Origin: Candidatus Hecatella orcuttiae
GTDB taxonomy: Archaea > Thermoproteota > Bathyarchaeia > Hecatellales > Hecatellaceae
Assembly (NCBI GenBank): GCA_002011035.2
Contig: MTLY02000003.1
Span: 576,001 to 640,000, forward strand
Direction: 5' to 3'
DNA: 64,000 nt
Below the pieces are notes generated by a model. The model was not told the DNA's origin. It did not search any database and was given only the letters and a program-made list of their open reading frames with translations. Numbering within the stretch: position 1 is the first letter of the stretch; every line of letters starts with the position of its first letter. The translations under genes were made by a program, and so were the position numbers. Positions 2,044 to 59,907 of the stretch are shown one piece after another.

Positions 2044-2046
2044 AGG

Positions 2047-2481: not shown

Positions 2482-2492
2482 GTATCAGATTT

Positions 2493-3947: not shown

Positions 3948-3954
3948 GGCTCCA

Positions 3955-5154: not shown

Positions 5155-5155
5155 T

Positions 5156-13094: not shown

Positions 13095-13155
13095 AACGCT
13101 GAGGAACCGGAGCTAAAGGGGTTGCTCCAAAGGACTGAAGATTTTTCCTGTCAGT

Positions 13156-14205
13156 TTATGATAGGTTGACAATCACCTTAATCGGATTCTCTTTTCTATT
13201 TTTTTCAGGATTGCTGAATATTTCAAACGCCTCGTTTATGTTTTCGAGCGCAATTTCATGGGTTACGAAGTCTAGCAGATTCACGTTACGAGTTTTCACA
13301 AGTTCAAGAGCTCTTCTTATGTGGTTCGTCGACCCTGGGTTTAGAACTCCGATAATAGTTCTTTCTAAGGATGTTACGTAGCTGAGGTTTATTTCCACCG
13401 GTTTACTTACAATCGCTACTTGAACATATCTCCCAGAAGGTTTGATAGACTCGAGTGTTGATGTCACAGTGGCTGGAACTCCAGCAGTTTCTAATCCCAC
13501 GTCCACGCCAGCTCCCTCGGTCAAATTCATAACCTCCTTTACCACGTTTACTTCTCCCTTGGCATTAATTACATGGTCTGCTCCGAATTTTCTAGCCAAT
13601 TCCAAGGGTTTTTCCCTTATGTCCACACCTATCACTTTGGAAGCTCCGGCTAGTTTTGACGCGATAAGCGCTGATAATCCTATAGGGCCTAGGCCTGACA
13701 CCAGCACGGTGAAACCTAAGCTTACTCCACCTCTTTCAGCAGCATAAAACCCTGTAAGAAACATGTCGGGGACCAATACCGCCTGCTTAGGATCCATGTT
13801 TTCAGGGATTTTCACCAGAACTCTCTCGGCATGGGGAACCCTCATGAATTGAGCAAAGGCCCCATCATAATTCAAGCCGAAGAGTATGCGACGCTCACAT
13901 AGTTGCTGTTTTCCAGCTGTGCAGTATTTGCAGACGCCGCATGAAGCCACATAAGAGCCGATGACATTGTCCCCCACTTTAAACATCCTTACGCCCTGAC
14001 CTACTTGGAAAACTTTGCCTGCGTACTCATGTCCAAGGATCAGAGGCGTCTTGGCCGGTATGTGGCCGAGGTAAGCATGCAGATCGGTTCCGCATACAGC
14101 GCAATGCTTGACTCTGACTATAACTTCTCCAAGAGATGGAGGGCCAGGAGTGGGAGTCTCCTCAACTCTGAGGTCATTTGGATTGTGAAGGACTGCTGCT
14201 TTCAA
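13156..14205 (-). CDS. Zn-dependent alcohol dehydrogenase (MDR family)
   Basis: CGTD, GHE, CGVCKYC...C structural Zn, GLGPIG. Confidence 0.92.
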   Translation of the reverse strand: MKAAVLHNPNDLRVEETPTPGPPSLGEVIVRVKHCAVCGTDLHAYLGHIPAKTPLILGHEYAGKVFQVGQGVRMFKVGDNVIGSYVASCGVCKYCTAGKQQLCERRILFGLNYDGAFAQFMRVPHAERVLVKIPENMDPKQAVLVPDMFLTGFYAAERGGVSLGFTVLVSGLGPIGLSALIASKLAGASKVIGVDIREKPLELARKFGADHVINAKGEVNVVKEVMNLTEGAGVDVGLETAGVPATVTSTLESIKPSGRYVQVAIVSKPVEINLSYVTSLERTIIGVLNPGSTNHIRRALELVKTRNVNLLDFVTHEIALENINEAFEIFSNPEKNRKENPIKVIVNLS

Positions 14206-14232
14206 GGCACAGATTAATGGAATCTGAGATGT

Positions 14233-15471
14233 TTATATATTTTTTCTAAGCGCCTTCATGGACGGAGCTATGGTCTTCGGTTTTTTTACCATTTTCGAGT
14301 AGGTTTCCACCGTTTTGAGGCCGCTGCCGGTCAGCATGCAGAGGACTCTATCATTCTTATCTATTAATCCCTCATCCAACATTTTTTTGGTACCGGCAAC
14401 TGACGCCGCGGAAGAAGGCTCCACGAAGAGGCCCTCTATTTTAGCTATCCACGACGCAGCTTCAACGATCTGCTGGTCTTTAATGGTTTCAGATAAACCG
14501 CCTGTTTCTCTCAGAGCTTTCAAAACAAGCTTCCCTTTTAGTGGATATCCGATCATCAAACCTTCAGCTATGGTTTTAGGCTTTCTAACATACCTTATTT
14601 CATTCCGACCTTTTTTGTAAGCTTTTGCAATGGGTGCGCATCCTTCAGGCTGAATGCATACGAGTCTAGGAATCTTTGAAATCCAACCTATCTGAGCAAC
14701 TTCACTGAAGCCTTTTCTGCAGCCTAGCAACCCGCTGCCTGTCCCTACGGGGTGAACCACCCATTCAGGTGGGTCGTTGTTGAATTGCTCGCAGATTTCA
14801 TGTCCGATGGTTTTCATTCCTTCTGTCACGTAGGGATTCGTTTGGAAACCGCAATAATACCATCCGAACTTCTGACAGGCTTCCCTAGCGATATCGTAAG
14901 AATCTTTCCTAGTCCCCTTTACTCGGAAGACGGATGCTCCATTCATCATGGCTTGGATAATTTTGCCGAGGCTGGCGTAGGAGGGTGTGAAAATGTAACA
15001 TTCTAATCCCGCCTTCGCTGCATAGGCTGCGACGGATGTTGCAGCGTTACCTGAGGAATCTATCGCCAAGGTGGCGGCTCTAAGCTCGCTAGCCCTTGAA
15101 ACCATCAGGGCTGAGCCGCGGTCCTTAAAAGAGCCGGTAGGAAACATGTAATCCAGTTTGAAAAAAAGGTTTTTGATGCCTATCTTTTCGCTTAATTTTT
15201 TCGCCTTATAAATAGGGGTCAGTGTCTCCCCCAAACTTACCTTGCGACTAACATCGATAGGGAGAAACTCGGCGTAACGCCACATAGTCTTCGGTCTTCT
15301 GAGTATGTCGGCGATCTTCACTCTGTTTTTTATGGACTCGTAGTCTAACATGACATCAAGCAGTCCACCGCACTTAGAGCAAAAATACGTGGTTTCTCTA
15401 AGGTCATGAACAGCGTCGCAATTCAAACACCTCAACGACACTGCATAATTCTGCCGGCATCCACCTGTCAC
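14233..15471 (-). CDS. Threonine synthase-like PLP enzyme
   Basis: N-terminal CLNC/CSKC, PTGSFKDRG, DSSGNAA, EPSSA, LTGSGLK. Confidence 0.85.
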   Translation of the reverse strand: MTGGCRQNYAVSLRCLNCDAVHDLRETTYFCSKCGGLLDVMLDYESIKNRVKIADILRRPKTMWRYAEFLPIDVSRKVSLGETLTPIYKAKKLSEKIGIKNLFFKLDYMFPTGSFKDRGSALMVSRASELRAATLAIDSSGNAATSVAAYAAKAGLECYIFTPSYASLGKIIQAMMNGASVFRVKGTRKDSYDIAREACQKFGWYYCGFQTNPYVTEGMKTIGHEICEQFNNDPPEWVVHPVGTGSGLLGCRKGFSEVAQIGWISKIPRLVCIQPEGCAPIAKAYKKGRNEIRYVRKPKTIAEGLMIGYPLKGKLVLKALRETGGLSETIKDQQIVEAASWIAKIEGLFVEPSSAASVAGTKKMLDEGLIDKNDRVLCMLTGSGLKTVETYSKMVKKPKTIAPSMKALRKNI

Positions 15472-15630
15472 TTTCAGAAATCCCTCAACATATTTTTTGT
15501 CCAGAGAATTTATACTCTTTCACGGAGACCTTAACTCTAAAATTTGACCTTTTACCGAATGGCTTTTGTTTGCTTTTGAAGCATCTTTATCTACCGAATC
15601 CGGAAAAGGCTTTTAAGAAAGCTGGTTCTC

Positions 15631-16938
15631 TCAGCTTAAAGCCTTCAGCGAATCGTCAAGTCTCTCCAATACGGTTTTTATCTGTTCCTCCGTTATGCAG
15701 AGGGGCGGCTGCAACCTTATGACGTTACCGTAGACTCCGCCTACGTTCACCAGTACGCCTTTTTTCGCCATGTTTACTCTGATATTATTCGCCTCCTCTT
15801 TTGCAGGCTCCTTGGTTTTCTGGTCTCTAACAAGCTCGACTCCGAGCATCAAACCTCTTCCTCGCACATCCCCGATCAACGGATATTTTTCTGCAAGTTC
15901 TCCGAGTCCTTCCATAAAGACTCTTCCTCGTTGAGCACTCTTCTCCACCAATTTTTCTTCGAGCAAAACGTTGATGTTTTCCAGCGCTCCGGCACATACG
16001 ATAGCGTTGCCGCCGTATGTTCCACAGTGGTCAACAGAAACGAAGACTTCAGCTACTTCGTCAGTTACTATGGTTGCTGCGATGGGTAAGCCGCTTGCAA
16101 TGCCCTTGGCAACAGCCATTATGTCCGGCTCTACGTTGAAGAGTTCCACAGCGAACATTTTACCCGTTCTACCGAAACCGGTTTGTATTTCGTCGGCGAT
16201 ATAAAGGGCGCCATGTTCCTTGAAAATCTTCACTACCACTGAAAGGTATTCATCGGGCGGAACGATGATTCCCCCCTCCCCGAATATTGGCTCAGAAATG
16301 AAGGCGGCGACATCGCCTGTGGTTTCGTACTTAATCAAGTTTTCCACGTAACTTGCGCATTGGAGACCACATTCAGGGTATGTCAGCCTGTAAAAGCAAC
16401 GATAACAGTAGGGAGCTGGAGCGTGGATCACGCCCGGATGCACGTAGGTGCTGAGGCCTTGCTTGTACTTATTTTGGCCTGTCAGAGCCATGGCGTAGGA
16501 TGTTCTCCCATGAAAAGACCCCGTTAACGCAACAATTTCAGCGCCGCCTCTTCCACGTTTTTTGAAGGCGTATTTTTTGGCGAGCTTCACAGCGTTCTCA
16601 ACAGCCTCAGCTCCCGAGCTGACGAACATGGTTCTATTTAAGTTTCCCGGAGTTATCTGCGCCAGTTTCTCGGCCAGCAGAGATGTAGGTATCAAATAAT
16701 AGTCCCAGGAGACATGCCATATTTTGGCTACCTGCTCCTGTATGCTCTTAACGATACGAGGATGACAGTATCCAACGTTTGTAACTGAATATCCGCCATG
16801 GCAGTCGATGTACTCTTTACCGTTGACGTCGGTCAGCACCGCGTTCTTTCCTTTCTCAAAAACTATAGGATGTCTTCCCGTCGTATCTCCAGGCAAAATA
16901 TACCTTGTTTGTTTCTTAATAATCTCCTCACTAGACAT
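15631..16938 (-). CDS. Class-III PLP aminotransferase (GabT/AGXT2-like)
   Basis: SGAEAVE, FHGRT, EPIFGEGG, DEIQTGFGRTG, AKGIASG, TYGGN. Confidence 0.92.
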   Translation of the reverse strand: MSSEEIIKKQTRYILPGDTTGRHPIVFEKGKNAVLTDVNGKEYIDCHGGYSVTNVGYCHPRIVKSIQEQVAKIWHVSWDYYLIPTSLLAEKLAQITPGNLNRTMFVSSGAEAVENAVKLAKKYAFKKRGRGGAEIVALTGSFHGRTSYAMALTGQNKYKQGLSTYVHPGVIHAPAPYCYRCFYRLTYPECGLQCASYVENLIKYETTGDVAAFISEPIFGEGGIIVPPDEYLSVVVKIFKEHGALYIADEIQTGFGRTGKMFAVELFNVEPDIMAVAKGIASGLPIAATIVTDEVAEVFVSVDHCGTYGGNAIVCAGALENINVLLEEKLVEKSAQRGRVFMEGLGELAEKYPLIGDVRGRGLMLGVELVRDQKTKEPAKEEANNIRVNMAKKGVLVNVGGVYGNVIRLQPPLCITEEQIKTVLERLDDSLKALS

Positions 16939-17030
16939 GGTATCATCCTATTGAAATATGGTAGACTGATACGTTATTAAAATATTTTTATACAGATTTC
17001 GTACTAAAAAATGGCGGGTGGCTGGATGAG

Positions 17031-18287
17031 ATGGAGGTCAAAAAAAAGATTCTTCAACATATTGATCAACATAAAAACGAAATCGTGGAGTTTCTGCGAA
17101 GTCTGATAAGAATACCCAGCGTAACCGGCTCGGAGAAAGAAATTTCAAATTTTATCGCAAAAAAACTTGATTCTCTCGGTCTTGAAGTTGATGTTTGGGA
17201 GCCGAACTTAAACGAGCTGAAGAAACATCCAGGATACGTATCGGTGGAGATGGACTATAAAGACCGGCCTAACGTGGTAGGCGTATGGAAGGGTGCCGGC
17301 GGAGGAAAATCTCTGCTTTTCAACGGGCATCTGGATGTGATTAACGCTGATCCCAGCGTATGGAAACATAACCCTTGGGGCGGAGAGATCGAAAATGGCC
17401 AACTGTATGGTAGAGGAGCGTCTGACATGAAAAGTGGATTAGCCGCCATGACAATGGCCTTAGCCTGCATAATCGAAGTAGGAATCAGACTCAAAGGCGA
17501 TGTAATCTTGGAATATGTGGTAGACGAAGAGTTCACTGGCCACGGAACATTAGACTGTATCTTGAGAAACTATAAGGCGGATGCGGGAGTAAGCTGCGAG
17601 GCAAGCGACCTTGAAGTTCAGCCAGCAGCCACGGGCAGTATGTGGTTTGAAATAAAGGTCGACGGCAAATCAGCTTCCATGTCGAGGATATGGGAGGCGG
17701 TAAGCGCCATCGAAAAGGGTCATGTGGTCCACAAGGCAATTCAAGATTATCAAACTGTCAGATTCGAGAAACGTCATCCCTTATATCCGGATCCAAAGGG
17801 TGCTCTTGCCTGTTTTGCAGGCATTTTTCAAGCTGGGTCTTATCCTAGTTCTCCTCCTGATACTTGTACAATAAAAGGGAGGATGGGGGTTCTGCCTAAC
17901 GAGGATCCCGCCGATGTTAAACGGGAATTCATAGAATACATTGAAAATGCCGCGAAAAAGGATCCTTGGCTCAGGGAACATTTACCTAGGGTGGAGTTTA
18001 CAGGTTATTATGCTGAGCCAGCGGAAATTCCAGCAGATCATCCCATCTGTACCACTGTAATTAGCTCTTTCGAGGAAGCGACCATGAAAAAGCCTGTTGT
18101 ACGCGGTCATGAAGGCGCAGCTGACACTCGATTCCTGATAAAGTATGGTGCAACGCCTACTGTCATTTTTGGTCCTGGAACCATAACGCAGATGCATGCC
18201 ACAGACGAGTGGGTGAGAATAGAGGATTTGATAACCTCGGTAAAAGTTCTAGCTTTAACGATTCTCAACTGGTGTGGTTGGGAGTAA
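17031..18287 (+). CDS. M20 ArgE/DapE-family deacylase (YodQ/YlmB-like)
   Basis: NGHLDV, GRGASDMK, VDEE, CE, MHATDE. Confidence 0.9.
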   Translation: MEVKKKILQHIDQHKNEIVEFLRSLIRIPSVTGSEKEISNFIAKKLDSLGLEVDVWEPNLNELKKHPGYVSVEMDYKDRPNVVGVWKGAGGGKSLLFNGHLDVINADPSVWKHNPWGGEIENGQLYGRGASDMKSGLAAMTMALACIIEVGIRLKGDVILEYVVDEEFTGHGTLDCILRNYKADAGVSCEASDLEVQPAATGSMWFEIKVDGKSASMSRIWEAVSAIEKGHVVHKAIQDYQTVRFEKRHPLYPDPKGALACFAGIFQAGSYPSSPPDTCTIKGRMGVLPNEDPADVKREFIEYIENAAKKDPWLREHLPRVEFTGYYAEPAEIPADHPICTTVISSFEEATMKKPVVRGHEGAADTRFLIKYGATPTVIFGPGTITQMHATDEWVRIEDLITSVKVLALTILNWCGWE

Positions 18288-18462
18288 AGCGGTATACGCT
18301 CAATTAATCTTACATAGAGCTGAGTGCTGTAGCAATTTCTGAGACAATCATAAGCTGACTGATTTTTCATAAATTTTCTATCAACAGCCTTTTTGATTTT
18401 TTTTAGTTATCAAGGAGTTAGTGAACAATAAATTTAATTAATGGAATCCCTTAATTTTTATC

Positions 18463-19782
18463 ATGAGTCGCGTAGCCATTTCGAAACTCGTTTCACCTGT
18501 CGATGAAAGCAAAATATTTGATGCCGTCAAGTCAGTACTCGACAAGCTTGGAGGCATAGAGAAGTTCGTCAGTCCAGGGGAAATGGTTTTAATAAAACCG
18601 AATTTTGTAAGTCCCAGACCACCACCGGTCACAACTGACATCCGCGTTATTAAAGCATTGGCCCTTCAGATAAAAGAAACTGGAGCTAAGCCCATAATCG
18701 GCGAGGGATCCTCAGCTATGACTCATTGGTGGCGCGAAGGAATGACTACAGAGGATGTCATGGACCTCTTGGGCGTTTCAGACATGGCCAAAGAGATAGG
18801 GGTTGAACTCATACCTTTCGATAGAAAAGGTGTATTCAAAAGCCGAATGACGCTGATACCCGACGCTGTTTTGATGAAAAAGGCGGAGATAGCTGAATTG
18901 GCGTTGGAAGCTGATAAAATAATACCTTTGCCGGTTTTAAAAACAAGCATGGAAGGCGGGGGTATAACCTGTTGCATAAAAGTTTTGCATGCACTTACCA
19001 ATGCTCAGAGTGACAGGCTGCGTTGGCATCGTTCAGACCTATGGCAAAAGCTGATTGATCTCTTCAGACTTGTAAAGCCGAAAATACCTTTCTGCTTGGT
19101 CGACGGCCTTGTAGGCATGGAGGGCGATGGGCCGATCCACGGTACGCCCGTGAACATGAATTTGATTCTGGCAGGCGATGACCCTGTATCCACAGATGCC
19201 ATAGCTGCTAAGATTATAGGTTTTGAATATCCCCATCGAGAGATAGGACCGATAGCGTTGGCGCATTCTCAAGGATTAGGAATGGGGGATCCTTCTCAAA
19301 TCGAGGTGATGGGAGAGAAAGTCGATGAGGTTAAAAAGAGGTTTCTGATGGCTTCATGCGAAATAATCACTCCCCCCTTTGAAAACGTTCTAGTCTACGA
19401 AGGTGCAACTTGCAGGGGGTGTAAAGCTTGGATAAAATTCTTGTTATACATGTTGAGAGACACAGGGATCTTCGAAGACTTGAAGAGGCTGGATAAAAAA
19501 CTCTTCTTCTTTACAGGGCTTGAACCGCCCTTCCCAACAGATTTGGAGGAACTTCGAGAACTTTCTAAAAAAGGAGTGATACTGGTGTACGGTGACTGTT
19601 CAACGAATACCACAAAACATTCTTACTGGGTTCTGAAGCAAGGAGAATTGAAAGGGAAAATTATCCTCATACCGGGTTGCCCGCCTTTTGATAGCGCCCA
19701 GCAAGCAACACAAATCAGGGACGCATTAGGTCTGGAAACCACGGAAAAGGAAGAGGAAGCCTTCAAATACGTTCCAACATGA
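18463..19782 (+). CDS. DUF362 protein with C-terminal Fe-S-binding domain
   Basis: VLIKPN, TT, IGEG, PVLKT, DGLVGMEGDGP, DPVSTD; C-terminal CRGC...GDC...GCPP. Confidence 0.85.
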   Translation: MSRVAISKLVSPVDESKIFDAVKSVLDKLGGIEKFVSPGEMVLIKPNFVSPRPPPVTTDIRVIKALALQIKETGAKPIIGEGSSAMTHWWREGMTTEDVMDLLGVSDMAKEIGVELIPFDRKGVFKSRMTLIPDAVLMKKAEIAELALEADKIIPLPVLKTSMEGGGITCCIKVLHALTNAQSDRLRWHRSDLWQKLIDLFRLVKPKIPFCLVDGLVGMEGDGPIHGTPVNMNLILAGDDPVSTDAIAAKIIGFEYPHREIGPIALAHSQGLGMGDPSQIEVMGEKVDEVKKRFLMASCEIITPPFENVLVYEGATCRGCKAWIKFLLYMLRDTGIFEDLKRLDKKLFFFTGLEPPFPTDLEELRELSKKGVILVYGDCSTNTTKHSYWVLKQGELKGKIILIPGCPPFDSAQQATQIRDALGLETTEKEEEAFKYVPT

Positions 19783-19863
19783 AGTTTCCAAAATACGTCG
19801 AAAACAAAATCTTTATTAAAATTTAGAAAAATTCTCATTGGTGGGAAAAAGGGATTCGCATCG

Positions 19864-19980
19864 ATGGCTAACAGCACCATGAGATGCGCCGGATGCGGCA
19901 GAGAAATAGCTAAGGGGCAGGAGTTTATCATACGCGGTAAAGCATACTGTTTAAACTGCCGATTTCCCATCGGAGGGTAA
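19864..19980 (+). CDS. 38-aa zinc-finger microprotein (not in the ORF track)
   Basis: MANSTMRCAGCGREIAKGQEFIIRGKAYCLNCRFPIGG*: two CxxC pairs; TATA-like TTTATTAAA at ~19812-19820 preceded by an A-rich BRE-like stretch. Confidence 0.65.
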   Translation: MANSTMRCAGCGREIAKGQEFIIRGKAYCLNCRFPIGG

Positions 19981-20188
19981 ACCTCTGTATCGTCTTTACT
20001 TTTATACTAAGCTCACCATTAATTTTCTCTTTTAAGCTGAATATTACCTAACGATCTTGCGGCCATCCACCTTATTTGTGGATAACCGGGGAAGTTAACG
20101 TCGGAGTGGAATGGGGGATCCGAGGCCAGCTTGAAGACTTGTTTACGAACCGTAAAACTTAAATTCCCTGTGTAGTGATCGCATCCCT

Positions 20189-21058
20189 ATGAGGAAGTTT
20201 TTTAGACCTAGAGAGTATTTTAAACCCGAAACCCTCGAGGAGGCTTTGAATTTACTTGCTAAATATGGGGAATCGGCGAGACCTATTGCAGGCGGCACCG
20301 ATCTGCTGGTTAAGAAGCCGCCTGAAGTTGAGTATTTAATAGACATCGCTTCCTTGCCCTTGGATTACATCAAAAACGATGGGGAATACCTGAAGATCGG
20401 CTCTTTGTCCACCTTCCACAGCATAGAGACTTCCAGTCTGTTTAAGGAAGGCGCGTATCGGATATTGGCGGAATCGGCTCATGATTTTGGCCAAGCCACC
20501 GTTAAGAATATGGCGACCATCGGGGGTAACGTGTGCAGCGCTGTTCCTTCCGCGGATTTTCCCCCGGTTTTGATGGTCTTAGACGCTAAAGCTAAGATAG
20601 TCAGTCTGGCTGGGGAGAGGATTGTTTCCATGGAAGAATTTTTTGCGGGCGTAAGGAAAACCGTTCTGAGGAGCGACGAGTTGCTTGTAGAGTTTCAGAT
20701 ACCTAAACCTCCGCCCCATACAGGAGCGGCATTCTACAAGCTGGGAAGGACCAGCGTGGACATCGCCCTTGTGAACGCGGCCGCACGAATAACCTTAAGG
20801 TCGGACGGTGTCTGCGAAGATGCGAGGATAGCTCTAGGCGCAGTCGCTCCTACCCCTATCAGAGCCAAGGGGGCAGAAAAATTACTTCGGAAAAAGGAGA
20901 TAGACGAGGCTCTTGTGGAAGAAGCAAGTCAAACAGCGTCCGAAGAGACGAAGCCTATAAGTGATGTTCGTTCCTCAGCCGAGTATAGAAAGGAGATGAG
21001 TAAGGTTTTGGTAAAGAGGGTATTACAAAAATCCCTGAAAAGGGCGAAGGGAGAGTGA
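20189..21058 (+). CDS. Xanthine dehydrogenase-family FAD subunit (CoxM-like)
   Basis: AGGTDL, ATIGGN, PSAD, GAVAPTP, ISDVRSSAEYR. Confidence 0.93.
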   Translation: MRKFFRPREYFKPETLEEALNLLAKYGESARPIAGGTDLLVKKPPEVEYLIDIASLPLDYIKNDGEYLKIGSLSTFHSIETSSLFKEGAYRILAESAHDFGQATVKNMATIGGNVCSAVPSADFPPVLMVLDAKAKIVSLAGERIVSMEEFFAGVRKTVLRSDELLVEFQIPKPPPHTGAAFYKLGRTSVDIALVNAAARITLRSDGVCEDARIALGAVAPTPIRAKGAEKLLRKKEIDEALVEEASQTASEETKPISDVRSSAEYRKEMSKVLVKRVLQKSLKRAKGE

Positions 21059-21065
21059 AGAAAGA

Positions 21066-23824: not shown

Positions 23825-23944
23825 ATCTGCCAACGTTTATCATCTATCATCTTTAGCAGCGAAGTTTCCCTCGCAGAGTTCAGCAAGAAGCTGATATACA
23901 GCGGTTATGATCGAATTTGCCGCGCCTTCCCTTTTCAAGAGCTG

Positions 23945-24754: not shown

Positions 24755-24763
24755 CTTTTCTTC

Positions 24764-26703: not shown

Positions 26704-26938
26704 TTTCTGCTCTCCTTTTTATAAATTCTTGAAAGCAAATTAAAAAGCTTACTGCTATTTGACGGTGTGAAATGATCAAATTTGACACAAATACATCTAC
26801 CTAAACGAATTACGATGAATTTTGTATGCTTTTTCTTAACGAAAATTCAAAAACCGGCTGCTCTTTTTCATTTAAAGCTTCTTTACGGAAAACCATTAAA
26901 AACTACAGAATGGAAAAAATGGGCAGGAATAAATATCA

Positions 26939-26952
26939 TAAAAAAAGGGGGA
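26939..26952 (-). terminator. Oligo-T terminator candidate after the binding-protein gene
   Basis: The minus strand reads CTCCCCCTTTTTTTA immediately after the stop codon. Confidence 0.4.
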
Positions 26953-26957
26953 GAGAT

Positions 26958-28100
26958 TTAACCTTTCACTCCTAGAAGTGGACGGATTTCTTCGTCAAAC
27001 CGTGCAGTCCACTCTTCCATTTTCTCCCGCGCCACCAGCGGATCGTATGCATACGCGTATTTTTCAATCTCTTCCTTGGTCAAGGCGTAGGGATACGCAG
27101 CGGCCTCTGCATTTATGTTTGTTGGGAACTGGCCTAGTCGTGCAGCTGATTCTTCGTTTATCTCTCGGTCCAAAGCTAGGTTCACGTATTTGAAGGCCCA
27201 TTCTTTTCTGGGACTGTTTGTCACGTGCAGAGTCCATTCTCCTAAGTGAACTGGATGCTTCTCGGAGGCGGCGGCGAATGCCACGGCAACCCCTCTCTCC
27301 AGTAATGGTAGGAGGCTGTCGTTTGTTGAACCTAGGTGCACGTTGATTTCTCCCCTTTCGATAGAACTGATGATGTCCCCTACTGTTGGGGTGATGAGCG
27401 TGATGTTCGGCGCTATCTTTTTCAGCAATTCCCATCCGGGCTCTGGATTATATTCGTCTCCACCCATAGCATAAGCCAGCCGCAGCAAGGTTACTCCGCC
27501 ATAATAGCCAATGGGAACTATTCCTATCCTGTATTGAGGGTCAGCAAGGTCTTCCATGGACACCGGCTCGTCAACTAGATCGGTACGATATAGTGTTCGT
27601 ACGTGAGACATGAAATTGGCTACACCGTAGATTTTACCATTGTATACCGTCATGTATTCGTCGGGGATTTCTTCCAAATTCGGCATTTCCTCCACCGGGA
27701 AGGGGGCTATGATGTTGTCTATAGCGGCTTCCAAACCTGCGACATGGGTAGCACCCCAGACATCGTTGAAATAGTTAGGTAGGTCAGCTCTGATCTTGGC
27801 CAGCCCCTCTGTGGAATAAGCCTCTACCTCATACCTTACAGGAATACCGAATTCTGCTTCGAACATTTCGTTAATATATTCAAACGCTGCCCTGGATTTG
27901 GGGTCTCCCCAAGCTAAGAGTGTTATAAAGTCCGGCTTCGGTACTGGCGTAGGCGTGGGTGTAGGCGTCGGTGTTGGAGCCGGGGCTGGGGGCCTTGTGG
28001 CCTGCCAGGCGGCGTAGCCGCCCACACCAGCCACCACCACAGCCACAACCGCAGCAACACCGTATTTTAGGGCGCTTCTACGAGATTCGGAAGATGTCAA
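26958..28100 (-). CDS. ABC substrate-binding protein (PotD/spermidine-opine-like) with Tat-like signal and Pro-Thr linker
   Basis: SRRSALK followed by a hydrophobic helix, then PAPAPTPTPTPTPTPVP, LYRTD, EDLADP, AFKYVN. Confidence 0.85.
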   Translation of the reverse strand: MTSSESRRSALKYGVAAVVAVVVAGVGGYAAWQATRPPAPAPTPTPTPTPTPVPKPDFITLLAWGDPKSRAAFEYINEMFEAEFGIPVRYEVEAYSTEGLAKIRADLPNYFNDVWGATHVAGLEAAIDNIIAPFPVEEMPNLEEIPDEYMTVYNGKIYGVANFMSHVRTLYRTDLVDEPVSMEDLADPQYRIGIVPIGYYGGVTLLRLAYAMGGDEYNPEPGWELLKKIAPNITLITPTVGDIISSIERGEINVHLGSTNDSLLPLLERGVAVAFAAASEKHPVHLGEWTLHVTNSPRKEWAFKYVNLALDREINEESAARLGQFPTNINAEAAAYPYALTKEEIEKYAYAYDPLVAREKMEEWTARFDEEIRPLLGVKG

Positions 28101-28252
28101 GAACTTTCACCGGTTTAGTCTATTACCAGATATCTTATATATAAAAGTTTCGAGAAAAAATAGATGGAAATATTAATCAGCATCCCCATTAGAAAATCTT
28201 ATATAGATAATGAAATGAAAATTATATCCCCTCATAATTTGGGGGATTTCCT
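28101..28252. promoter_or_regulatory. Divergent promoter region shared by the ABC operon and the methyltransferase operon
   Basis: Very AT-rich; two ATCTTATATA boxes; inverted repeat ATCCCC...GGGGAT just upstream of the corrinoid gene. Confidence 0.5.
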
Positions 28253-28900
28253 TTGTCCAAAGAAGAAGTTTTGGAAAAGCTACGCAGAAGTTTTCTCAGC
28301 TACGATGAGGAAGCCACTCGAAAGGCTGCGGCGGAGGCTCTCGCTGCGGGAGTAGACCCCTTGGAGGCTGTAAGCGTCCTTACAGAGACTATCAGAGAGC
28401 TAGGTGAGAAATTTTCTAAGATGGAAATCTTTCTCCCCGACTTGATGCTGGCGGCAGATGCCATGAGAGCTGGATTAACCGTGTTGAAGCCGGAGTTGAT
28501 GAAAAGAAAGGCGGAGACCAGAACTCTAGGTAAGATTCTAATAGGTGTGGTGAAGGGGGACATCCACGACATCGGTAAAACCATTCTGGTCACGATGCTA
28601 GAGGCCGAGGGTTTCGAAGTGATCGACTTGGGAAAAGATGTTCCCATAAGAAAATTTGTGGAAGAAGCTCAAACTCACAACCCTGACATCATTGCCGCTT
28701 CCGCTTTGATGACGACGACGAGGCCTGAGCAAAGAGGACTTATTGAATATCTTAAACATCTGGGCTTCAGGGACAAATATAAGGTTATGGTGGGAGGCGG
28801 TGCGGTGACAAGTCAGTATGCCGAAGAGATAGGCGCTGATGGATACGGTGAAAACGCCCCTGAAGCTGTGGAAGTTGCAAAAAAACTGATTTCTAAGTGA
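28253..28900 (+). CDS. Methyltransferase cognate corrinoid protein (MtmC/MttC family)
   Basis: FLPDLMLAA cap domain, GDIHDIGK, SALMTTT, VGGG, IGADGY. Confidence 0.95.
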   Translation: MSKEEVLEKLRRSFLSYDEEATRKAAAEALAAGVDPLEAVSVLTETIRELGEKFSKMEIFLPDLMLAADAMRAGLTVLKPELMKRKAETRTLGKILIGVVKGDIHDIGKTILVTMLEAEGFEVIDLGKDVPIRKFVEEAQTHNPDIIAASALMTTTRPEQRGLIEYLKHLGFRDKYKVMVGGGAVTSQYAEEIGADGYGENAPEAVEVAKKLISK

Positions 28901-28914
28901 AGGGGAGTTCAGTT

Positions 28915-29092
28915 TTGTCGAGGTCTAGGGTGTGGGAGCTTTGGCGGAGGGCTGAGACGGGTCCTCTCTGCCCGGAGCGGGAGTTTGACCTGAAGAGGTT
29001 TTATCCGGCTGTGAAGAGGCTGGTGAAGGAGTACGACATAACATACGACCCTGAAACCGTCATCCCCACCGACAACACCCTCATCGACGACG
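28915..29092 (+). repeat. 178-bp perfect direct repeat, copy 1 (5' end of mtmB paralogue 1)
   Basis: Base-by-base identical to 30332-30509. Confidence 0.95.
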
Positions 29093-30303
29093 TTTTCAAG
29101 GCGGGGATCGATCTACTGACCGAAGTGGGGGTGCTTTGCCCGGATACCGAGAAGATTATTCAGTTGGAGGAGCGGGAGGTCAAAGAATCCTTAGCTACCC
29201 TCTCCGGTGAAATGACGGTAGGGGAAGGAAAGGACGCCTGCCTTCTGAAACATAGAAAGATGGAAGACCATGAGCCTGCACGCGTCTTCGCAGGGCCTTC
29301 AGGAAATCCCATATCCGAGGAGATGGCTATCCCCATATACCAGTCTTGCGCTCAAGAACCAACCGTCGACCTGCTTATGTACGGTACACCTACCACAATT
29401 GCGGGTATGGTGTCAAAGGACGGTTCGCCCATGGAGATGTACGCGGAGGTCGCCAATGTACGCTGGCTGAGGGAGGCTGCCAGAAGAGCAGGAAGACCGG
29501 GTATGTTCATTATCGGTTCTGGAGCAGTAGGTGTGGCACCCGCAATACTGGCCAGCTTGGTAGAGAACGGCTATAGGAAAACCGACGGAATACAGCTCGC
29601 AGGACTACCGCAGTTAAAAATACCTTACTTTGAACTTTGCAAGGCTGAATTCTGCATCGAGTACGGGTGCAGAGGCTGGGTTACCTCCCCAGCTTACATA
29701 GGGGGGTTACCGGGCGGACCTGAAGCGGCTGCCGTCACAGAGGTAGCTGAGTGCATAGCTGCCAATCTTGTGTTTCGCACACCTTGGGTCTGTGTGGACA
29801 TTCACGACCTTCTGTATCCGCCCGGCACGTCGAGGAGGGATGTAATGAGCATGGTGAACTTGGTTACAGCTGCTCTTGCAAAGCATACCAAGTTGATTGT
29901 CTCCACCCTCTGCGACCGCGTTTATGCAGGATGTTGCACGGACATGGCTTTCTATGAATTTGCAGTGGCAGCCCTTGGAGCTGCTGTTGCTGGAGGAGAC
30001 CCTATGAGTGGATGTTGCAGAGAAGGCAGGTACACCGACTACGTAACCGGTATGGAGGGAAGATGCACAGGTGAGATTGCTAAATCGGTTACAGGAATGA
30101 GGAGGGTGGATGCAAACGACATAGCGAAGGCCATCTTAGCCAAGTATGAAGACCGCCTTCCACCGAAAGGGAAACCACCCATTGGGAAGGAGTTTCGAGA
30201 ATGTTACAATCCGAAAACGGTTACACCTAACAAAGAATATGTAGAACTTTATGGGAAAATTAAGAAAGAACTGGAAGATATGGGGATTAGCTACAAATTT
30301 TAG
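28915..30303 (+). CDS. mtmB: MtmB-family corrinoid methyltransferase, pyrrolysine-free (paralogue 1)
   Basis: IPTD, GPSGNPISE, AGRPGM, TGMEGR, GKEFRECY...TVTP. The Pyl-equivalent codon is ATC (29512). Probable TTG start at 28915 after GGGGAG. Confidence 0.88.
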   Translation: MSRSRVWELWRRAETGPLCPEREFDLKRFYPAVKRLVKEYDITYDPETVIPTDNTLIDDVFKAGIDLLTEVGVLCPDTEKIIQLEEREVKESLATLSGEMTVGEGKDACLLKHRKMEDHEPARVFAGPSGNPISEEMAIPIYQSCAQEPTVDLLMYGTPTTIAGMVSKDGSPMEMYAEVANVRWLREAARRAGRPGMFIIGSGAVGVAPAILASLVENGYRKTDGIQLAGLPQLKIPYFELCKAEFCIEYGCRGWVTSPAYIGGLPGGPEAAAVTEVAECIAANLVFRTPWVCVDIHDLLYPPGTSRRDVMSMVNLVTAALAKHTKLIVSTLCDRVYAGCCTDMAFYEFAVAALGAAVAGGDPMSGCCREGRYTDYVTGMEGRCTGEIAKSVTGMRRVDANDIAKAILAKYEDRLPPKGKPPIGKEFRECYNPKTVTPNKEYVELYGKIKKELEDMGISYKF

Positions 30304-30331
30304 GTTTGTGACGCTGAGGGTAGGTGTGGAG

Positions 30332-30509
30332 TTGTCGAGGTCTAGGGTGTGGGAGCTTTGGCGGAGGGCTGAGACGGGTCCTCTCTGCCCGGAGCGGGAG
30401 TTTGACCTGAAGAGGTTTTATCCGGCTGTGAAGAGGCTGGTGAAGGAGTACGACATAACATACGACCCTGAAACCGTCATCCCCACCGACAACACCCTCA
30501 TCGACGACG
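30332..30509 (+). repeat. 178-bp perfect direct repeat, copy 2 (5' end of mtmB paralogue 2)
   Basis: Base-by-base identical to 28915-29092. Confidence 0.95.
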
Positions 30510-31726
30510 CCTTCAAAGCCGCCATCGACCTACTACTGGAAGTAGGTGTCCTTTGCACGGACACAGAAAAAATAATCAAGCTTGAAGAAGGAGAGATCAA
30601 GGAAGCTCTTGCCACTTTCCCAAAGGAGATCACCGTCGGCGAAGGCAAGGATGCTGTTACTCTAACTCATAGGAAGATCGAAGACGATAAGCCTCCTAGG
30701 ATCATGGGAGGACCCAACGGTAGCCCTATATCCGAGGAGATGGCGATTCCCATCTATCAAAGCTACATCCAAGAACCTATGCTCGACATACTTTTTTATG
30801 GGACGCCGACGACGGTGGAGGGTATGGAGGTGAAAGCCGGCTCCCCCGTGGAGTTGTACGCTGAAATAGCCAATGTCTACTGGATGAAAGAAGCTGCGAG
30901 GAGAGCTGGAAGACCCGGCATATGCACTCTTGGAGCCGCGGGGGCGACTGCGGCTCCCCAGATACTGGCCAGCTTAGTGGAGGGTGGTTACAAAAAAACC
31001 GACGCTATGCAACTCAGTCCTCCTCCTCAATTGAAGGCTCCTTACTTCATGCTCTGTGAAGCAGCCCATTGCATTGAATATGGGTGCAGAGGCGTAGTCA
31101 TCCCCAGTTCCATCATAGGCGGCCTAGCTGGAGGGCCTGAGGGCGCCGCCATAACCAACATTGCTGAATGCATAGCCTTCGCCATACTTTTCAACACTCC
31201 TTGGGTGCATCCCTTCATGCCTGAGGCACTCCATGCCCCTGGATGCTCCGCTTATCCTCCGGAAATGGCTATGGAACTTCTGTCAATAGCCGCTTTAGTC
31301 AAACATGCGAATCTCATAATTACCAGTGGTGCGAACTCTAGGACCTTCTCAGGACTTTGCACTGATACGACCTTCTATGAGATTGCAGCACCCGCTATAG
31401 GCAAAACAGTGATAGGCGCCAACCTCCATGCAGGTTCAGCGAGGAAAGGCTACTACACCGATTACATGGCAGGCATATCAGCTCGGTGCACCGGAGAAGT
31501 AGGGTGGGCCGCTGTGGGGCTGAAACGGGAGGATGCCAACGAGATGGTTAAAACAATTATGGCAAAATACGAAGATATACTGCCACCCAAAGGAACGCCG
31601 CCCGTTGGAAAGAAATTTCAAGAGTGCTACGACGTCCAAACTGTCACACCGACAAAGGAACATGAAGACTTATATAAGAAAGTGAAAAAAGAGCTTGAAA
31701 ACATAGGGTTAGCCTTTAAATATTGA
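30332..31726 (+). CDS. mtmB: MtmB-family corrinoid methyltransferase, pyrrolysine-free (paralogue 2)
   Basis: GGPNGSPISE, AGRPG, GGLAGG, GKKFQECYDVQTVTPT. The Pyl-equivalent codon is CTT (30929). Probable TTG start at 30332. Confidence 0.88.
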   Translation: MSRSRVWELWRRAETGPLCPEREFDLKRFYPAVKRLVKEYDITYDPETVIPTDNTLIDDAFKAAIDLLLEVGVLCTDTEKIIKLEEGEIKEALATFPKEITVGEGKDAVTLTHRKIEDDKPPRIMGGPNGSPISEEMAIPIYQSYIQEPMLDILFYGTPTTVEGMEVKAGSPVELYAEIANVYWMKEAARRAGRPGICTLGAAGATAAPQILASLVEGGYKKTDAMQLSPPPQLKAPYFMLCEAAHCIEYGCRGVVIPSSIIGGLAGGPEGAAITNIAECIAFAILFNTPWVHPFMPEALHAPGCSAYPPEMAMELLSIAALVKHANLIITSGANSRTFSGLCTDTTFYEIAAPAIGKTVIGANLHAGSARKGYYTDYMAGISARCTGEVGWAAVGLKREDANEMVKTIMAKYEDILPPKGTPPVGKKFQECYDVQTVTPTKEHEDLYKKVKKELENIGLAFKY

Positions 31727-31931
31727 TTTCTTAATCCTTAAACGGGGTCTGTTTAAAAGATAGACTGAAAAGCTGAAGCTTGATTTGTGGAAATAGCTTT
31801 TTCATTCTCATGAGTCTTGCAGGAGACGCTTTAATCTGTCCCTAAATATGCTATATCGCCCCAAAAAAATGACGGCTACTCCCTTTCCAGCATTAGTTTC
31901 TTTGAGTAGCCTATAACTGCTTTGGTTGAAA

Positions 31932-32429
31932 TCAGCGTAATCTTGGTTTTTTAACGTTGTTCACCAGAAGTTTAATCAGTTCTTTTTCTTGGGATCTAGC
32001 TGAAAGGGCCTCTAGGTTTGTGAGTTCCAATGCTTCTTTGGGGCAAGCCTTAATGCAGGCAGGATCTCCACCGCAGAGGTCGCAGACAACTACAACTTTT
32101 CTATCAGGATGTAAGGTTAACGCTCCGATGTCGCAAGCGTCGATGCATAGGCCGCAGCCTGTGCACTTTTCATCGTCAACGATTATTATACCTGTCGAAG
32201 GATCTTTGGTTAAAGCTTCCAGGGGGCAGCTTTCGACGCAAGGCGGGTTTTCACATAGTTTACATGCTAAAGCCATATTGCCGACAGCTTCAGCTTCAAC
32301 AATACGAACTGTCTTTATCCGACTCAGCAGAGGGTTGAACTTTCCCTCCTTCACAGCTGAGCATATCAGTTCGCAGATACGGCAGCCTGTACATTTCTCA
32401 GGACTCGCTACTACATAGCTACGTTCCAT
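31932..32429 (-). CDS. 4x[4Fe-4S] ferredoxin-like subunit of the AOR
   Basis: CTGCRICELIC, CKLC..PC...CP, CTGCGLCIDAC, CDLC...C...CP. Confidence 0.9.
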   Translation of the reverse strand: MERSYVVASPEKCTGCRICELICSAVKEGKFNPLLSRIKTVRIVEAEAVGNMALACKLCENPPCVESCPLEALTKDPSTGIIIVDDEKCTGCGLCIDACDIGALTLHPDRKVVVVCDLCGGDPACIKACPKEALELTNLEALSARSQEKELIKLLVNNVKKPRLR

Positions 32430-34268
32430 CTAGTTCCCTCCATACGTCACCATATCAAGCCCTAATTTGGCGAGTTTTTCCTTCGGAGGTATACCCTCCG
32501 CACTCCAGCCGCGAGCTTTAAAGTAGGCTTCCAAAAGGAGGCTTCGCTCCTCCTCGGTAAATCTGATCCCCTTCAACGGACCGTTACCTATGGGTTCTTT
32601 GAAGATTCGAGCGGGATAGGTTTCATCTTTCAGGGTCCACCCTTCTCTGATGTTGTAACTTTTTTCAAGTGTGTAGATTCTTTCCCCGGCTAAGCTCAGT
32701 TCTTCAACACTCAGAAATAACCCGGTTGCCAACCGGTAGAGTTCAGCTATCTGCTCATAGCCTGTAATCACTTTTCTCGTAAACTTGCAGAGGATCAAGG
32801 AATCGATGACAGCCCAAAGGTTTTCCCTGTCAGCCACTAACCTGCCATAGGCTGGATCCGCCTTAGTCCCTTCGACCTTACCTGCCAAGTCAAAGTCGTA
32901 GGCGCTGGCGGTCATATGGTGGCCGCCGCGAGTTGAGGTCATAAATGCAAGAGCACAAACCTTCAGACCTCTTACCTCGTAGTCTGGTAACTCCAATCCC
33001 TTACTGTGCATGGCGAAATGCTGGGAGTCCTTCCCAAGCTTTTCAGAGGCTCTTTTCACACCTTCAGCCAAGAGGTCTCCTATGCCCTTGCGGTAGGCTA
33101 TCTTTCTGATAATTTCCAAAACGGCCTCCCCGTTTCCGAATTTGAGCTCAAGACCGCCTGTGTCTTCCCGGGTCAGCAAGCCTTTTTGGTAACATTCCAT
33201 AGCCCAGCCTATGGTAACTCCGACGCTTATGGTATCAACACCGTATCGGTCAGAAAACTCTGTAGCCTTGACCATCAACTGATAGTTACCTACTCCTGTG
33301 GAGAGGCCTAACCCGTAGAGGCTTTCCTGCTCGACGCTGGCTGTAGTCCCTTTATAAGGTCCGTTCTTCAGAACGGTTACGGGATCGCAGGCTATGGGGC
33401 AACCTTGACATGCTATCATCTTCGGGTGATAACGTTCTTTCGTGGTTTCTCCGGTAAACTCTTCATGAAGCACATGGTCGCTGGACTGCTGCCAGTTTCT
33501 CGTCGGCGAGATGCCCATTTCGCTAAGGGAAATCATTCCTCCGGGAGTGCCGTATAGCCTGTAGTATTTCGTGGCATCACCTTGGCAATCCTTGTAGAGT
33601 CTATTGCAATACTCAACCAATTCATCTATTTTCGCCACCTCTAAAGACTTGGAGCCGCGAACTGCCAGGGCTTTGAGTTTTTTAGACCCCATCACAGCAC
33701 CCATCCCTGTTCTGCCTGCTTGTCTACTCTTGTCGCTGGTTATACAGGCATATCTGACTAGGTTTTCCCCCGCGGGGCCTATTGCCGCAACGCTGATGTC
33801 CCTGTCGCCTATTGTCTCCTTTATCATGTCTTCCGTTTCCCATGAATCCCTCCCCCATAGGTCCTTCGCATCTTTAAACTGCACCGAGTCGTCGTCGATG
33901 AAGAGGTAGGTTGGCTGGGCGGCCTTTCCGGTTATCACCACAGCGTCATATCCAGCCCATTTGAGCGTCGGACCCCAAGAGCCTGAACATACGCTTTCCC
34001 CCATGAGAAAGGTGAGGGGAGACTTGGCGTGAACTATATACTTGCCTGCGGAAGGAATGCAGGTTCCAGCAAAGGGTCCTGTGGCAAAGATTAAAACATT
34101 GGCTGGGTCGAAGGGTTCCACCCTAGGCGGAGCGTTTTTGCACAGATAGTATATGCCGAAACCGTTTCCGCCTATGTATTTCCTGCAAAATTCTTCCTGC
34201 AGTGTTTCCGATTCGATTCTCTGACGGGTTAGGTCAACATGTAAGACCTTGTTTCTATAGCTGTACAC
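32430..34268 (-). CDS. Tungsten aldehyde:ferredoxin oxidoreductase (AOR family)
   Basis: YIGGNG, KSPLT, GRTGMGAVMGSKKLKA, CQGCPIAC, DRYGVDT, RGGHH, DSLILC. Confidence 0.92.
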   Translation of the reverse strand: MYSYRNKVLHVDLTRQRIESETLQEEFCRKYIGGNGFGIYYLCKNAPPRVEPFDPANVLIFATGPFAGTCIPSAGKYIVHAKSPLTFLMGESVCSGSWGPTLKWAGYDAVVITGKAAQPTYLFIDDDSVQFKDAKDLWGRDSWETEDMIKETIGDRDISVAAIGPAGENLVRYACITSDKSRQAGRTGMGAVMGSKKLKALAVRGSKSLEVAKIDELVEYCNRLYKDCQGDATKYYRLYGTPGGMISLSEMGISPTRNWQQSSDHVLHEEFTGETTKERYHPKMIACQGCPIACDPVTVLKNGPYKGTTASVEQESLYGLGLSTGVGNYQLMVKATEFSDRYGVDTISVGVTIGWAMECYQKGLLTREDTGGLELKFGNGEAVLEIIRKIAYRKGIGDLLAEGVKRASEKLGKDSQHFAMHSKGLELPDYEVRGLKVCALAFMTSTRGGHHMTASAYDFDLAGKVEGTKADPAYGRLVADRENLWAVIDSLILCKFTRKVITGYEQIAELYRLATGLFLSVEELSLAGERIYTLEKSYNIREGWTLKDETYPARIFKEPIGNGPLKGIRFTEEERSLLLEAYFKARGWSAEGIPPKEKLAKLGLDMVTYGGN

Positions 34269-59881: not shown

Positions 59882-59907
59882 CCTAAAGGGCGTCGGAGGC
59901 TGGAAGG

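Follow-up and report, generated by a model that had tools for sequence, protein, structure and literature searches.

An acquired gene island in an archaeal genome places pyrrolysine-free MtmB homologues beside a putative amine-to-acid route

An AT-richer tract in an archaeal genome raises the question whether adjoining genes for import, deacylation, demethylation, transamination and aldehyde oxidation form one catabolic route, or have gathered at one site from unrelated sources. The tract, hereafter the island, covers positions 13156–34268 of the window, which is the whole stretch of 64,000 nucleotides analysed (G000:C3:576001–640000). The host genome, G000, comprises 1.75 Mb in three contigs. 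Gene families were assigned by Pfam and NCBIfam profile scans of the window, and coordinates are window positions unless a contig is named. Labels of the type Gnnn denote genomes of the class, Lnnn fetched loci or contigs, and fnn families within the class. The island carries 17 genes, including two tandem homologues of the methyltransferase MtmB (MtmB1 and MtmB2) free of pyrrolysine (Pyl). The first-pass annotation had named the families of these 17 genes, all of which the scans recovered at the same positions, and had read the island as one complete pathway for a methylated (acyl)amine. On balance, we regard it as a laterally acquired, modular catabolic cluster for one or a few related N-methylated, possibly N-acylated, amines. 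The first-pass reading is partly supported: the gene set is real, acquired and recurrent, and links Pyl-free MtmB demethylases to an amine-to-acid route. Since the set is found again in related archaea, it probably serves as a functioning route by which a methylated nitrogen compound is broken down.

The island differs in composition from its flanks, as had been claimed. Its G + C content is 0.474, against 0.550 in the window flanks and 0.518 in the whole genome. The bulk value is not extreme, since it lies only at the 8.5th percentile among 3370 windows of 21 kb. The G + C content at third codon positions (GC3) was 0.42–0.56 in all 17 island genes. Only two of the 35 flank genes fell below 0.57, and the remaining 33 had 0.59–0.73. 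The genes at the edges, DinB (0.658) and Lhr (0.678), are native in GC3, compared with 0.44 for the zinc-dependent alcohol dehydrogenase (Zn-ADH) of the island. Genome-wide, 30% of the 1383 open reading frames (ORFs) of at least 150 aa have a GC3 <0.57, and they cluster into 17 low-GC3 runs, each with at least six members. Only two of these are longer than the island, whose run limits fall at exactly 13156–34268, the limits drawn at first pass. It is therefore one of many accessory tracts in a mosaic genome.

Close relatives lack the genes. No counterpart was found in the 13 same-family genomes for MtmB (E ≤ 0.001, and also at 1e-40), for the DUF362 protein (E ≤ 1e-40) or for the M20 deacylase (E ≤ 1e-90). 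Deviant composition thus coincides with absence from close relatives, the mark of a genomic island: this is acquired, foreign-looking accessory DNA. Contigs from four DNA runs showed the stretch to be present. Two contigs from another sample (X5), of 13 kb and 4.1 kb, span 12427–25476 and 30480–34593 with 0 differences, so the island junctions are not an artefact of a single-dataset assembly.

No integrase, transposase, or other mobility or regulator family was found by Pfam among the 17 island genes, in agreement with the first-pass annotation; smaller ORFs (≥40 aa) were listed and left unscanned. No terminal direct repeats were found at the island ends, and no flanking tRNA or att site. ARAGORN called an 87-nt tRNA-Gln at 13001–13087 (minus strand), inside the 3′ end of dinB. 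There is no Rfam tRNA at this position, and the call is probably false. An adjacency of dinB and lhr in relatives, proposed at first pass as a check, did not provide an empty insertion site, synteny being too rearranged to define one. DinB was detected in only three of 12 same-family genomes. In G001 it is on a different contig from lhr, which there lies between the counterpart of a PALP gene (window 50740–52113) and rSAM-AtpBA. In several same-family assemblies (G001, G004, G005, G009, G012) the Lhr orthologue is 1–4 kb from a contig end on the island-facing side, which may mark a variable or hard-to-assemble region.

The gene set recurs in other families of the class. Among 401 class genomes, 18 had a DUF362 match at E ≤ 1e-40, three of them at 49–70% identity, and in these three the neighbours are shared as well. 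One 15-kb contig of G229 (f16) carries XdhC, MobA, a ThrC-like enzyme (54% identity), the 2Fe-2S (56%), FAD (42%) and large (37%) subunits of the molybdenum (Mo) hydroxylase, Zn-ADH (40%), DUF362 (49%), M20 (57%), a class-III aminotransferase, MtmB and a corrinoid protein, and then ends. In G053 (f24) we found ferredoxin, aldehyde:ferredoxin oxidoreductase (AOR), aminotransferase (64%), M20 (60%), Zn-ADH (56%) and DUF362 (70%) up to the contig end, and in G044 (f20) AOR, ferredoxin, M20 (60%), aminotransferase (57%) and DUF362 (51%), again up to the contig end. Gene order and orientation differ in every genome carrying the set. Such recurrence in shuffled order is classically taken as a sign that co-location is under selection, and it runs counter to the possibility, raised at first pass, that the families never co-occur elsewhere.

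Three overlapping modules can be told apart. The first consists of M20, class-III aminotransferase, Zn-ADH, DUF362, AOR and ferredoxin (G053, G044, G229). The second is M20 with the three-subunit Mo hydroxylase. In eight of the 13 loci fetched, a Mo hydroxylase was encoded no more than 10 kb from the M20 orthologue, and in f26 the pair is accompanied by Zn-ADH, a luciferase-like gene, CoA-transferase subunits and a Liv-type importer. In the third module MtmB, often in two copies, is found with genes for a corrinoid protein, transport, class-III transamination and aldehyde oxidation. Within the host, it is seen in L021 (a Pot-like ABC system divergent from MtmB, aminotransferase, MtbB, corrinoid protein, ferredoxin and AOR) and in L025 (MtmB, MT2, corrinoid protein, AOR and ferredoxin). 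Beyond the host, it occurs in the Bathyarchaeia metagenome-assembled genome (MAG) L011, in the metagenome contigs L033, L030, L032 and L034, and in G253 (aminotransferase, AOR, MtmB, ABC, corrinoid protein). On contig L036, an NAD-type aldehyde dehydrogenase (PF00171) replaces AOR and an APC permease replaces the ABC system.

The aminotransferase and MtmB of G229 are orthologues of those in host locus L021 (75% and 58% identity), versus 26% and 34% to the island copies. The left half of the island is thus linked to a different demethylase module in each of two families. The M20 set often occurs without MtmB, so the set is modular rather than one obligatory pathway. We read it as a carbon-skeleton core to which a demethylase and an importer are added for methylated substrates; the demethylase looks like an add-on module.

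Both MtmB copies match PF05369 over its full length (323.5 and 328 bits, profile positions 3–450 of 450), and neither has an in-frame stop or UAG codon, which sets them apart from Pyl-containing enzymes. MtmB1 aligned to Methanosarcina barkeri MtmB (1L2Q) over residues 13–465, with Ile at the Pyl position; in a MAFFT alignment MtmB2 has Leu there. In this column X (TAG) occurred only in the host's Pyl-type copy, and I, L, M, V, T or other residues elsewhere. Database copies place the MtmB1 start 11 codons later (457 aa) and give MtmB2 466 aa, hence a likely start near 30326. The two proteins share 63% identity. A 300-nt stretch in their 5′ parts (28915–29214 and 30332–30631) is 85% identical, which, compared with the protein identity overall, suggests gene conversion.

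The upstream gene encodes a corrinoid protein with the DxHxxG motif, present as GDIHDIG, and its stop codon overlaps the MtmB1 ORF by 4 nt. Two methyltransferases per corrinoid protein recur in L033, L030, G015, G052 and G374, and this arrangement fits two successive demethylations.

The nearest non-self relatives of the pair reach 44–47% identity in a collection of 5.8 billion proteins and 45% in 400 class genomes. Close MtmB1 orthologues were restricted to two distant loci in the genome collection, and metagenome contigs gave 13 loci with relatives, the best at 45% (L031). At that locus (L031:9983–12138, 30% GC), MtmB is split into three ORF pieces, an MtrA-like gene and DUF5714 come next, and the surroundings bear no relation to those of the island. 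Another homologue (L035:400–1790) has 11 in-frame TAG codons within ~450 codons, which hints at an organism reading TAG as a residue throughout. Homologues of MtmB were present in 59 of 400 other class genomes, few of those among the matches listed having an in-frame stop.

The host itself gave 13 MtmB-family matches, 12 of them full-length and 11 of these without in-frame stop. We placed them in a quick IQ-TREE tree of 30 sequences, leaving out near-duplicates (L029, two from L011, and L036, identical to L037) and L035 with its in-frame TAGs. The island pair grouped with three tandem genes of G028 (SH-aLRT 94), and the host L021 copy with that of G229 (support 100). Seven host paralogues with native GC3 (0.65–0.71) formed their own clade (support 100). 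The L021 copy is the only other one with low GC3 (0.42) and is the closest paralogue of the island pair (37%). Around the members of the native clade (C1 loci L023, L024, L025 and L027) we found ABC importers of the Bmp/PnrA type, a carbamate kinase, a DPD-like pair, two OTCase-like genes and several genes of the Amidohydro_1 family, neighbours that may point to methylated nucleobases or nucleosides as the compounds demethylated.

The host is an archaeon, encoding MCM, GINS, TBP, an A-type ATPase and CdhCDE by profile scans. We take its class to be Bathyarchaeia; G053 belongs to the same class, and the nearest MtmB-bearing record in the genome collection is a Bathyarchaeia MAG. The population is one of marine and subsurface sediments. 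The genome encodes PylS and PylBCD, 14 corrinoid proteins, plus TAG-bearing MtmB and MttB genes, and MCR was not found in it (completeness 97%). The Pyl cassette together with the missing MCR makes the host a Pyl-using non-methanogen. At L026 (G000:C1:346000–363000) the neighbours of the PylS/B/C/D cassette are an MtmB gene with a TAG codon, an MttB gene split by one, and the corrinoid proteins that go with them. Two MtbB genes interrupted at a stop were seen elsewhere in the genome (L021, L022).

The island genes are arranged in five transcription units with alternating directions (Table 1). Unit 1, on the minus strand, runs from the aminotransferase through the ThrC-like gene to Zn-ADH (16938 down to 13156). 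Divergent from it, unit 2 on the plus strand (17031–23824) begins with M20 and DUF362; a gap of 406 nt separates these from the three hydroxylase genes (FAD, 2Fe-2S and Mo subunits, in that order). Unit 3 (minus, convergent with unit 2) encodes the binding protein, ATPase and two permeases of the importer (28100 down to 23945). Divergent from the importer, unit 4 (plus) has the corrinoid protein and both MtmB genes (28253–31726), and unit 5 (minus, convergent with the MtmB operon) has AOR and ferredoxin (34268 down to 31932). The spacer between units 3 and 4 contains TATA-like runs and may act as a divergent promoter.

Table 1 Genes and other features of the island and its edges, in window positions.
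Feature	Position	Strand	Basis or remark
DinB (left flank)	12006–13094		
Zn-ADH, threonine-dehydrogenase/secondary-ADH type	13156–14205	-	PF08240 + PF00107; last gene of aminotransferase operon
ThrC-like pyridoxal-phosphate (PLP) enzyme	14233–15471	-	PF00291; NF006050
Class-III (omega-type) aminotransferase	15631–16938	-	PF00202, 398.7 bits
M20 ArgE/DapE-type deacylase	17031–18287	+	PF01546 + PF07687; TIGR01910 over cut-off
DUF362 protein	18463–19782	+	PF04015
Mo hydroxylase, FAD subunit	20189–21058	+	PF00941/PF03450
Mo hydroxylase, 2Fe-2S subunit	21066–21551	+	PF01799/PF00111
Mo hydroxylase, Mo subunit	21548–23824	+	PF02738/PF20256/PF01315
ABC permease	23945–24754	-	PF00528
ABC permease	24764–25669	-	PF00528
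ABC ATPase	25633–26703	-	PF00005 + PF08402
ABC binding protein	26958–28100	-	PF13416
Divergent intergenic spacer, AT-rich, 152 nt	28101–28252	.	read directly
Cognate corrinoid protein	28253–28900	+	PF02310 + PF02607; TIGR02370 over cut-off
MtmB homologue 1 (MtmB1)	28897–30303	+	PF05369
MtmB homologue 2 (MtmB2), tandem duplicate	30251–31726	+	PF05369
Polyferredoxin, AOR partner	31932–32429	-	4Fe-4S dicluster families
AOR	32430–34268	-	PF02730 + PF01314, full length
Lhr helicase (right flank)	34566–37436		

The ATPase of the importer scored 370.7 bits with the potA subfamily model TIGR01187 (cut-off 355.6), and the PotB, PotC and PotA equivalog models stayed below their cut-offs. In the binding protein, a membrane anchor at the N-terminus is accompanied by a Pro/Thr linker. 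The protein matched PF13416 weakly and no NCBIfam model, and a sequence search of solved structures gave weak matches only, the best being 4EDP (E 1.5e-07). The closest host paralogues of the ATPase and permeases are in L021 (44.5%, 29% and 33%), likewise divergent from an MtmB gene.

The AOR carries AFOR_N and AFOR_C domains (268.9 and 392.5 bits) and has the polyferredoxin directly downstream, as befits the family. Three of the six host AOR genes are within 5 kb of an MtmB homologue, a number reached by 590 of 100000 random placements (p ~0.006). No equivalog cut-off was reached by the aminotransferase, whose orthologues in the G053 and G044 clusters were given above. The M20 enzyme has a putative acetylornithine deacetylase (3PFO) as nearest solved structure, and orthologues of 55–61% identity in 14 of 400 other class genomes. 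For Zn-ADH, the Tdh models were below cut-off, the nearest solved structures being a Zn-ADH and L-threonine 3-dehydrogenases; its orthologues are those of the G053 and G229 clusters. The ThrC-like enzyme, one of four paralogues in the host genome, scored 358 bits with NF006050 (cut-off 303) and is nearest to the threonine synthase 2ZSJ. Besides the orthologue next to the G229 Mo hydroxylase, a 39% paralogue lies beside tandem MtmB genes in L023.

The Mo hydroxylase has its FAD, 2Fe-2S and Mo subunits together, as is typical of the xanthine dehydrogenase (XDH) family, and reached no equivalog cut-off. The nearest solved relative of the Mo subunit is the alpha subunit of 4-hydroxybenzoyl-CoA reductase, then CoxL and 6-hydroxypseudooxynicotine dehydrogenase. 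Five more complete XDH-type loci are present in the host (C1:85852–89582, C1:127933–131836, C1:375278–379059, C2:391809–395450 and C3:710817–714459), plus two fragments at contig starts. Several of them are within low-GC3 runs, and one abuts a corrinoid protein gene (C1:126466–127092). At the right end of the window (57014–63966) we found a second Lhr paralogue and the Mo-cofactor genes MobA (two copies), XdhC and MoeA; XdhC and MobA are part of the cluster proper in G229.

The DUF362 protein is the most conserved gene product of the cluster (70%, 51% and 49% identity in G053, G044 and G229). It had been called an Fe-S protein at first pass; we found no Fe-S Pfam domain in it. Its C-terminal cysteines C320, C379 and C406 are invariant, and C299 nearly so. 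A sequence search of solved structures gave 0 matches. The AF2 model (pLDDT 85.8) has a LarA-like two-domain fold, and all 19 PDB matches of its fold search (E ≤ 0.001) were LarA-family racemases (TM 0.33–0.45). The host also encodes LarC, LarE and two true LarA homologues (C2:406686, C3:378023, C3:62177, C3:55312), whose presence therefore does not discriminate on the cofactor of the DUF362 protein. More speculatively, the modelled fold and the Tdh-like ADH may hint at a chiral hydroxyl in the substrate.

The kind of substrate, the order of the reactions and the direction in which they run are deduced from the gene families. The Pot-like ABC importer would take up the compound, and MtmB1 and MtmB2 would strip N-methyl groups onto their shared corrinoid protein. 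The methyl groups would pass via MT2 and RamA to the acetyl-CoA synthase pathway. The M20 enzyme might remove an acyl group or open an amide, and the class-III aminotransferase would convert the freed primary amine to an aldehyde. This could be oxidised to the acid by AOR with ferredoxin, or reduced by Zn-ADH. The carbon skeleton itself may be processed by three further enzymes: the Mo hydroxylase would probably add a hydroxyl group next to N, the ThrC-like enzyme catalyse a beta/gamma-elimination and the LarA-like DUF362 protein invert a C-OH centre. The CdhCDE genes of the acetyl-CoA synthase (2493–6553) lie 6.6 kb left of the island, matching the earlier estimate of about 7 kb, and are native in composition; their closeness is metabolically sensible. 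Cdh proteins had no match in the eight stretches of six relatives fetched around lhr and dinB. A second AOR and ferredoxin pair adjoins CdhCDE in the window (208–6553).

The first-pass proposal of demethylation, omega-transamination and aldehyde oxidation is strengthened by the repeated neighbourhoods of MtmB, corrinoid protein, aminotransferase and AOR. Its single functional unit is partly supported: it fits the absence from close relatives and the recurrence of the set, and less well the occurrence of M20 and Mo hydroxylase without MtmB.

Several observations weigh against a single methylated-amine route. Nine of the 14 genomes with an M20 orthologue had no MtmB homologue at E ≤ 1e-40. MtmB was present in five of the 14, versus 54 of 386 others, a co-occurrence that we do not count as support because it is weak and uncorrected for relatedness. 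The f26 set had no aminotransferase, AOR or MtmB within 10 kb. Conversely, most of the loci with MtmB and a corrinoid protein examined outside the host had neither aminotransferase nor AOR in the stretch fetched (G028, G015, G022, G084, G080, G044:C43, G322:C6, G052 and G374). Several of the recurring clusters stop at contig ends, and related genomes are not independent samples. Nor is the pathway complete within the island, as had been claimed: the corrinoid protein is there, and MT2 and RamA are encoded elsewhere in the host genome (six URO-D-type MT2 genes and one RamA, RACo_C_ter, none in the window). The aminotransferase scores equally with amino-acid racemases/epimerases and with putrescine and GABA aminotransferases in the PDB, so it could alternatively be a racemase of the same fold. 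Among the RNA runs listed, none matched window positions 24000–33999. To our knowledge, the characterised Pyl-free corrinoid methyltransferases all act on quaternary amines, and a single demethylation of a quaternary amine yields no transaminase substrate.

Part of this evidence suits a patchwork: a hot spot that collected two or three unrelated low-GC modules for different substrates, namely M20 with Mo hydroxylase for an amide or heterocycle, a corrinoid demethylase with its importer, and an aminotransferase with AOR for amino-acid fermentation. Five transcription units in alternating directions and the block-to-block spread in GC3 would be expected of it, as would M20 and Mo hydroxylase without MtmB in those nine genomes and MtmB with a corrinoid protein alone at many loci. 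The 17 low-GC3 runs of the host and its six or more XDH-type Mo-hydroxylase loci also agree with it. However, G229 unites nearly all the families on 15 kb, in another order and with non-orthologous MtmB and aminotransferase. AOR, aminotransferase, M20 and DUF362 are kept together in G053 and G044, and AOR genes are in excess near MtmB genes. We consider the patchwork rather unlikely, though the most serious of the competing explanations.

The linkage of M20 and Mo hydroxylase in eight of 13 loci is also what a route for an N-methyl heterocycle (pyrrolidine, pyridine or lactam type) would predict. Mo hydroxylation next to N would be followed by lactam opening by M20 to an N-methyl omega-amino acid, demethylation by MtmB1/2, and conversion to a dicarboxylate by aminotransferase and AOR. 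Such a route would parallel, under anaerobic conditions, the lower pathways for nicotine and N-methylpyrrolidone. It would explain every gene except the ThrC-like one and DUF362, and the solved relatives of the Mo subunit include 6-hydroxypseudooxynicotine dehydrogenase, quinoline oxidoreductase and nicotinate dehydrogenase. The nearest one, however, is 4-hydroxybenzoyl-CoA reductase, with no equivalog model reached. A Pot-type importer is unexpected for such compounds, nothing links the cluster to a particular heterocycle, and we know of no M20 ArgE/DapE enzyme acting as a lactamase. We therefore judge this route improbable.

That the MtmB homologues are ordinary monomethylamine methyltransferases, accompanied by amino-acid biosynthesis paralogues (ThrC, ArgD-like, ArgE-like), is very improbable: the full-length PF05369 match, the public annotation as "methylamine--corrinoid protein Co-methyltransferase" and the "threonine synthase" model NF006050 over cut-off agree with it, but Pyl is replaced by Ile/Leu despite a Pyl cassette and a separate TAG-bearing MtmB in the genome, and the genes are accessory, low in GC3, placed beside an importer and AOR, and absent in 13 same-family genomes.

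For the modular methylated-amine cluster that we prefer, the conserved neighbours of Pyl-free MtmB offer a testable prediction of substrates and product fate. If it is correct, "methylamine use" by a group that ranks among the most abundant archaea of sediments would include skeleton-plus-methyl catabolism of complex N-methyl compounds, and not C1 methylotrophy alone. The cluster would also give a DUF362 subfamily its first functional context; we found no function for any DUF362 member in the literature. A wider idea, which we hold tentatively and think less likely than not to be right, is that Bathyarchaeia possess an undescribed, horizontally exchanged kit from methylated amine to acid. In this kit, Pyl-free MtmB pairs sharing a corrinoid protein would take secondary or tertiary amines to primary ones, so that their substrates would not be confined to quaternary amines; aminotransferase and ferredoxin-linked AOR would produce the acid, and DUF362, M20 and Mo hydroxylase would extend the range to acylated and cyclic forms. 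An archaeon free of MCR could then draw on the skeleton of compounds such as N-methylated polyamines, amino alcohols or alkaloid-like bases in sediments, as well as on their methyl groups by way of acetyl-CoA synthase.

Parts of this picture have counterparts in known systems. In a large survey of Bathyarchaeia, mtmB genes are scored as monomethylamine methyltransferases and the group is credited with methylotrophy without methanogenesis (PMC10321748). Our literature search returned no paper joining Bathyarchaeia, corrinoid, AOR, methylamine and aminotransferase, and a polyamine variant of the search gave only unrelated work. The DUF362 protein resembles the LarA nickel-pincer racemases in the two-domain fold of its model, and DUF362 is described as belonging to the same Pfam clan as LarA (PMC11770544); the sequence identity is just 10–16%.

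The demethylase unit resembles MtqB/MtqC/MtqA of Methanococcoides methylutens, described as a Pyl-free MtmB homologue beside its cognate corrinoid protein with MT2 encoded apart (PMC13044021). In that description, MtqB is the only characterised Pyl-free MtmB, a methylated-amine:corrinoid methyltransferase acting on tetramethylammonium and choline, and its authors state that Pyl-free MtmB homologues, though known for a long time, had kept their functions elusive (PMC13044021). Unlike the Mtq system, the island has two tandem paralogues, and its genes are embedded with aminotransferase, AOR, M20, Mo hydroxylase and DUF362. With no MCR found in the host, the methyl group must enter the acetyl-CoA pathway, again unlike the Mtq system. 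The one Methanosarcinaceae homologue fetched (L012, 34%) was placed apart from the island pair, at the end of a long branch. Corrinoid demethylation feeding the Wood-Ljungdahl pathway in a non-methanogen is shared with the acetogen MttB-family enzymes MtgB, MtcB, MtpB and MtyB, as cited in the MtqB report (PMC13044021). Those enzymes belong to superfamily PF06253, and the island pair, in contrast, to PF05369. We know of no case in which their demethylated products pass to a linked transaminase and AOR.

The anaerobic purine region ygeW-ygfT/xdh of Escherichia coli combines an XDH-family Mo enzyme, the M20 hydrolase YgeY and a PLP beta-family enzyme. The island has a similar combination, its M20 enzyme matching the YgeY model weakly (139.5 bits, cut-off 321). 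Unlike that region, it has no carbamoyltransferase, carbamate kinase or hydantoinase; these families adjoin other MtmB paralogues of the host (L023). The PatA-PatD-GabT-GabD route of E. coli converts an amine to an aldehyde with a class-III aminotransferase and then to an acid, and is served by a Pot-type importer. The island follows the same logic, and its aminotransferase counts PatA and GabT among the closest relatives with solved structures. It differs in having a ferredoxin-linked AOR instead of an NAD-dependent dehydrogenase (contig L036 being the exception), and goes beyond the E. coli route with its putative demethylase, deacylase and Mo-hydroxylase steps.

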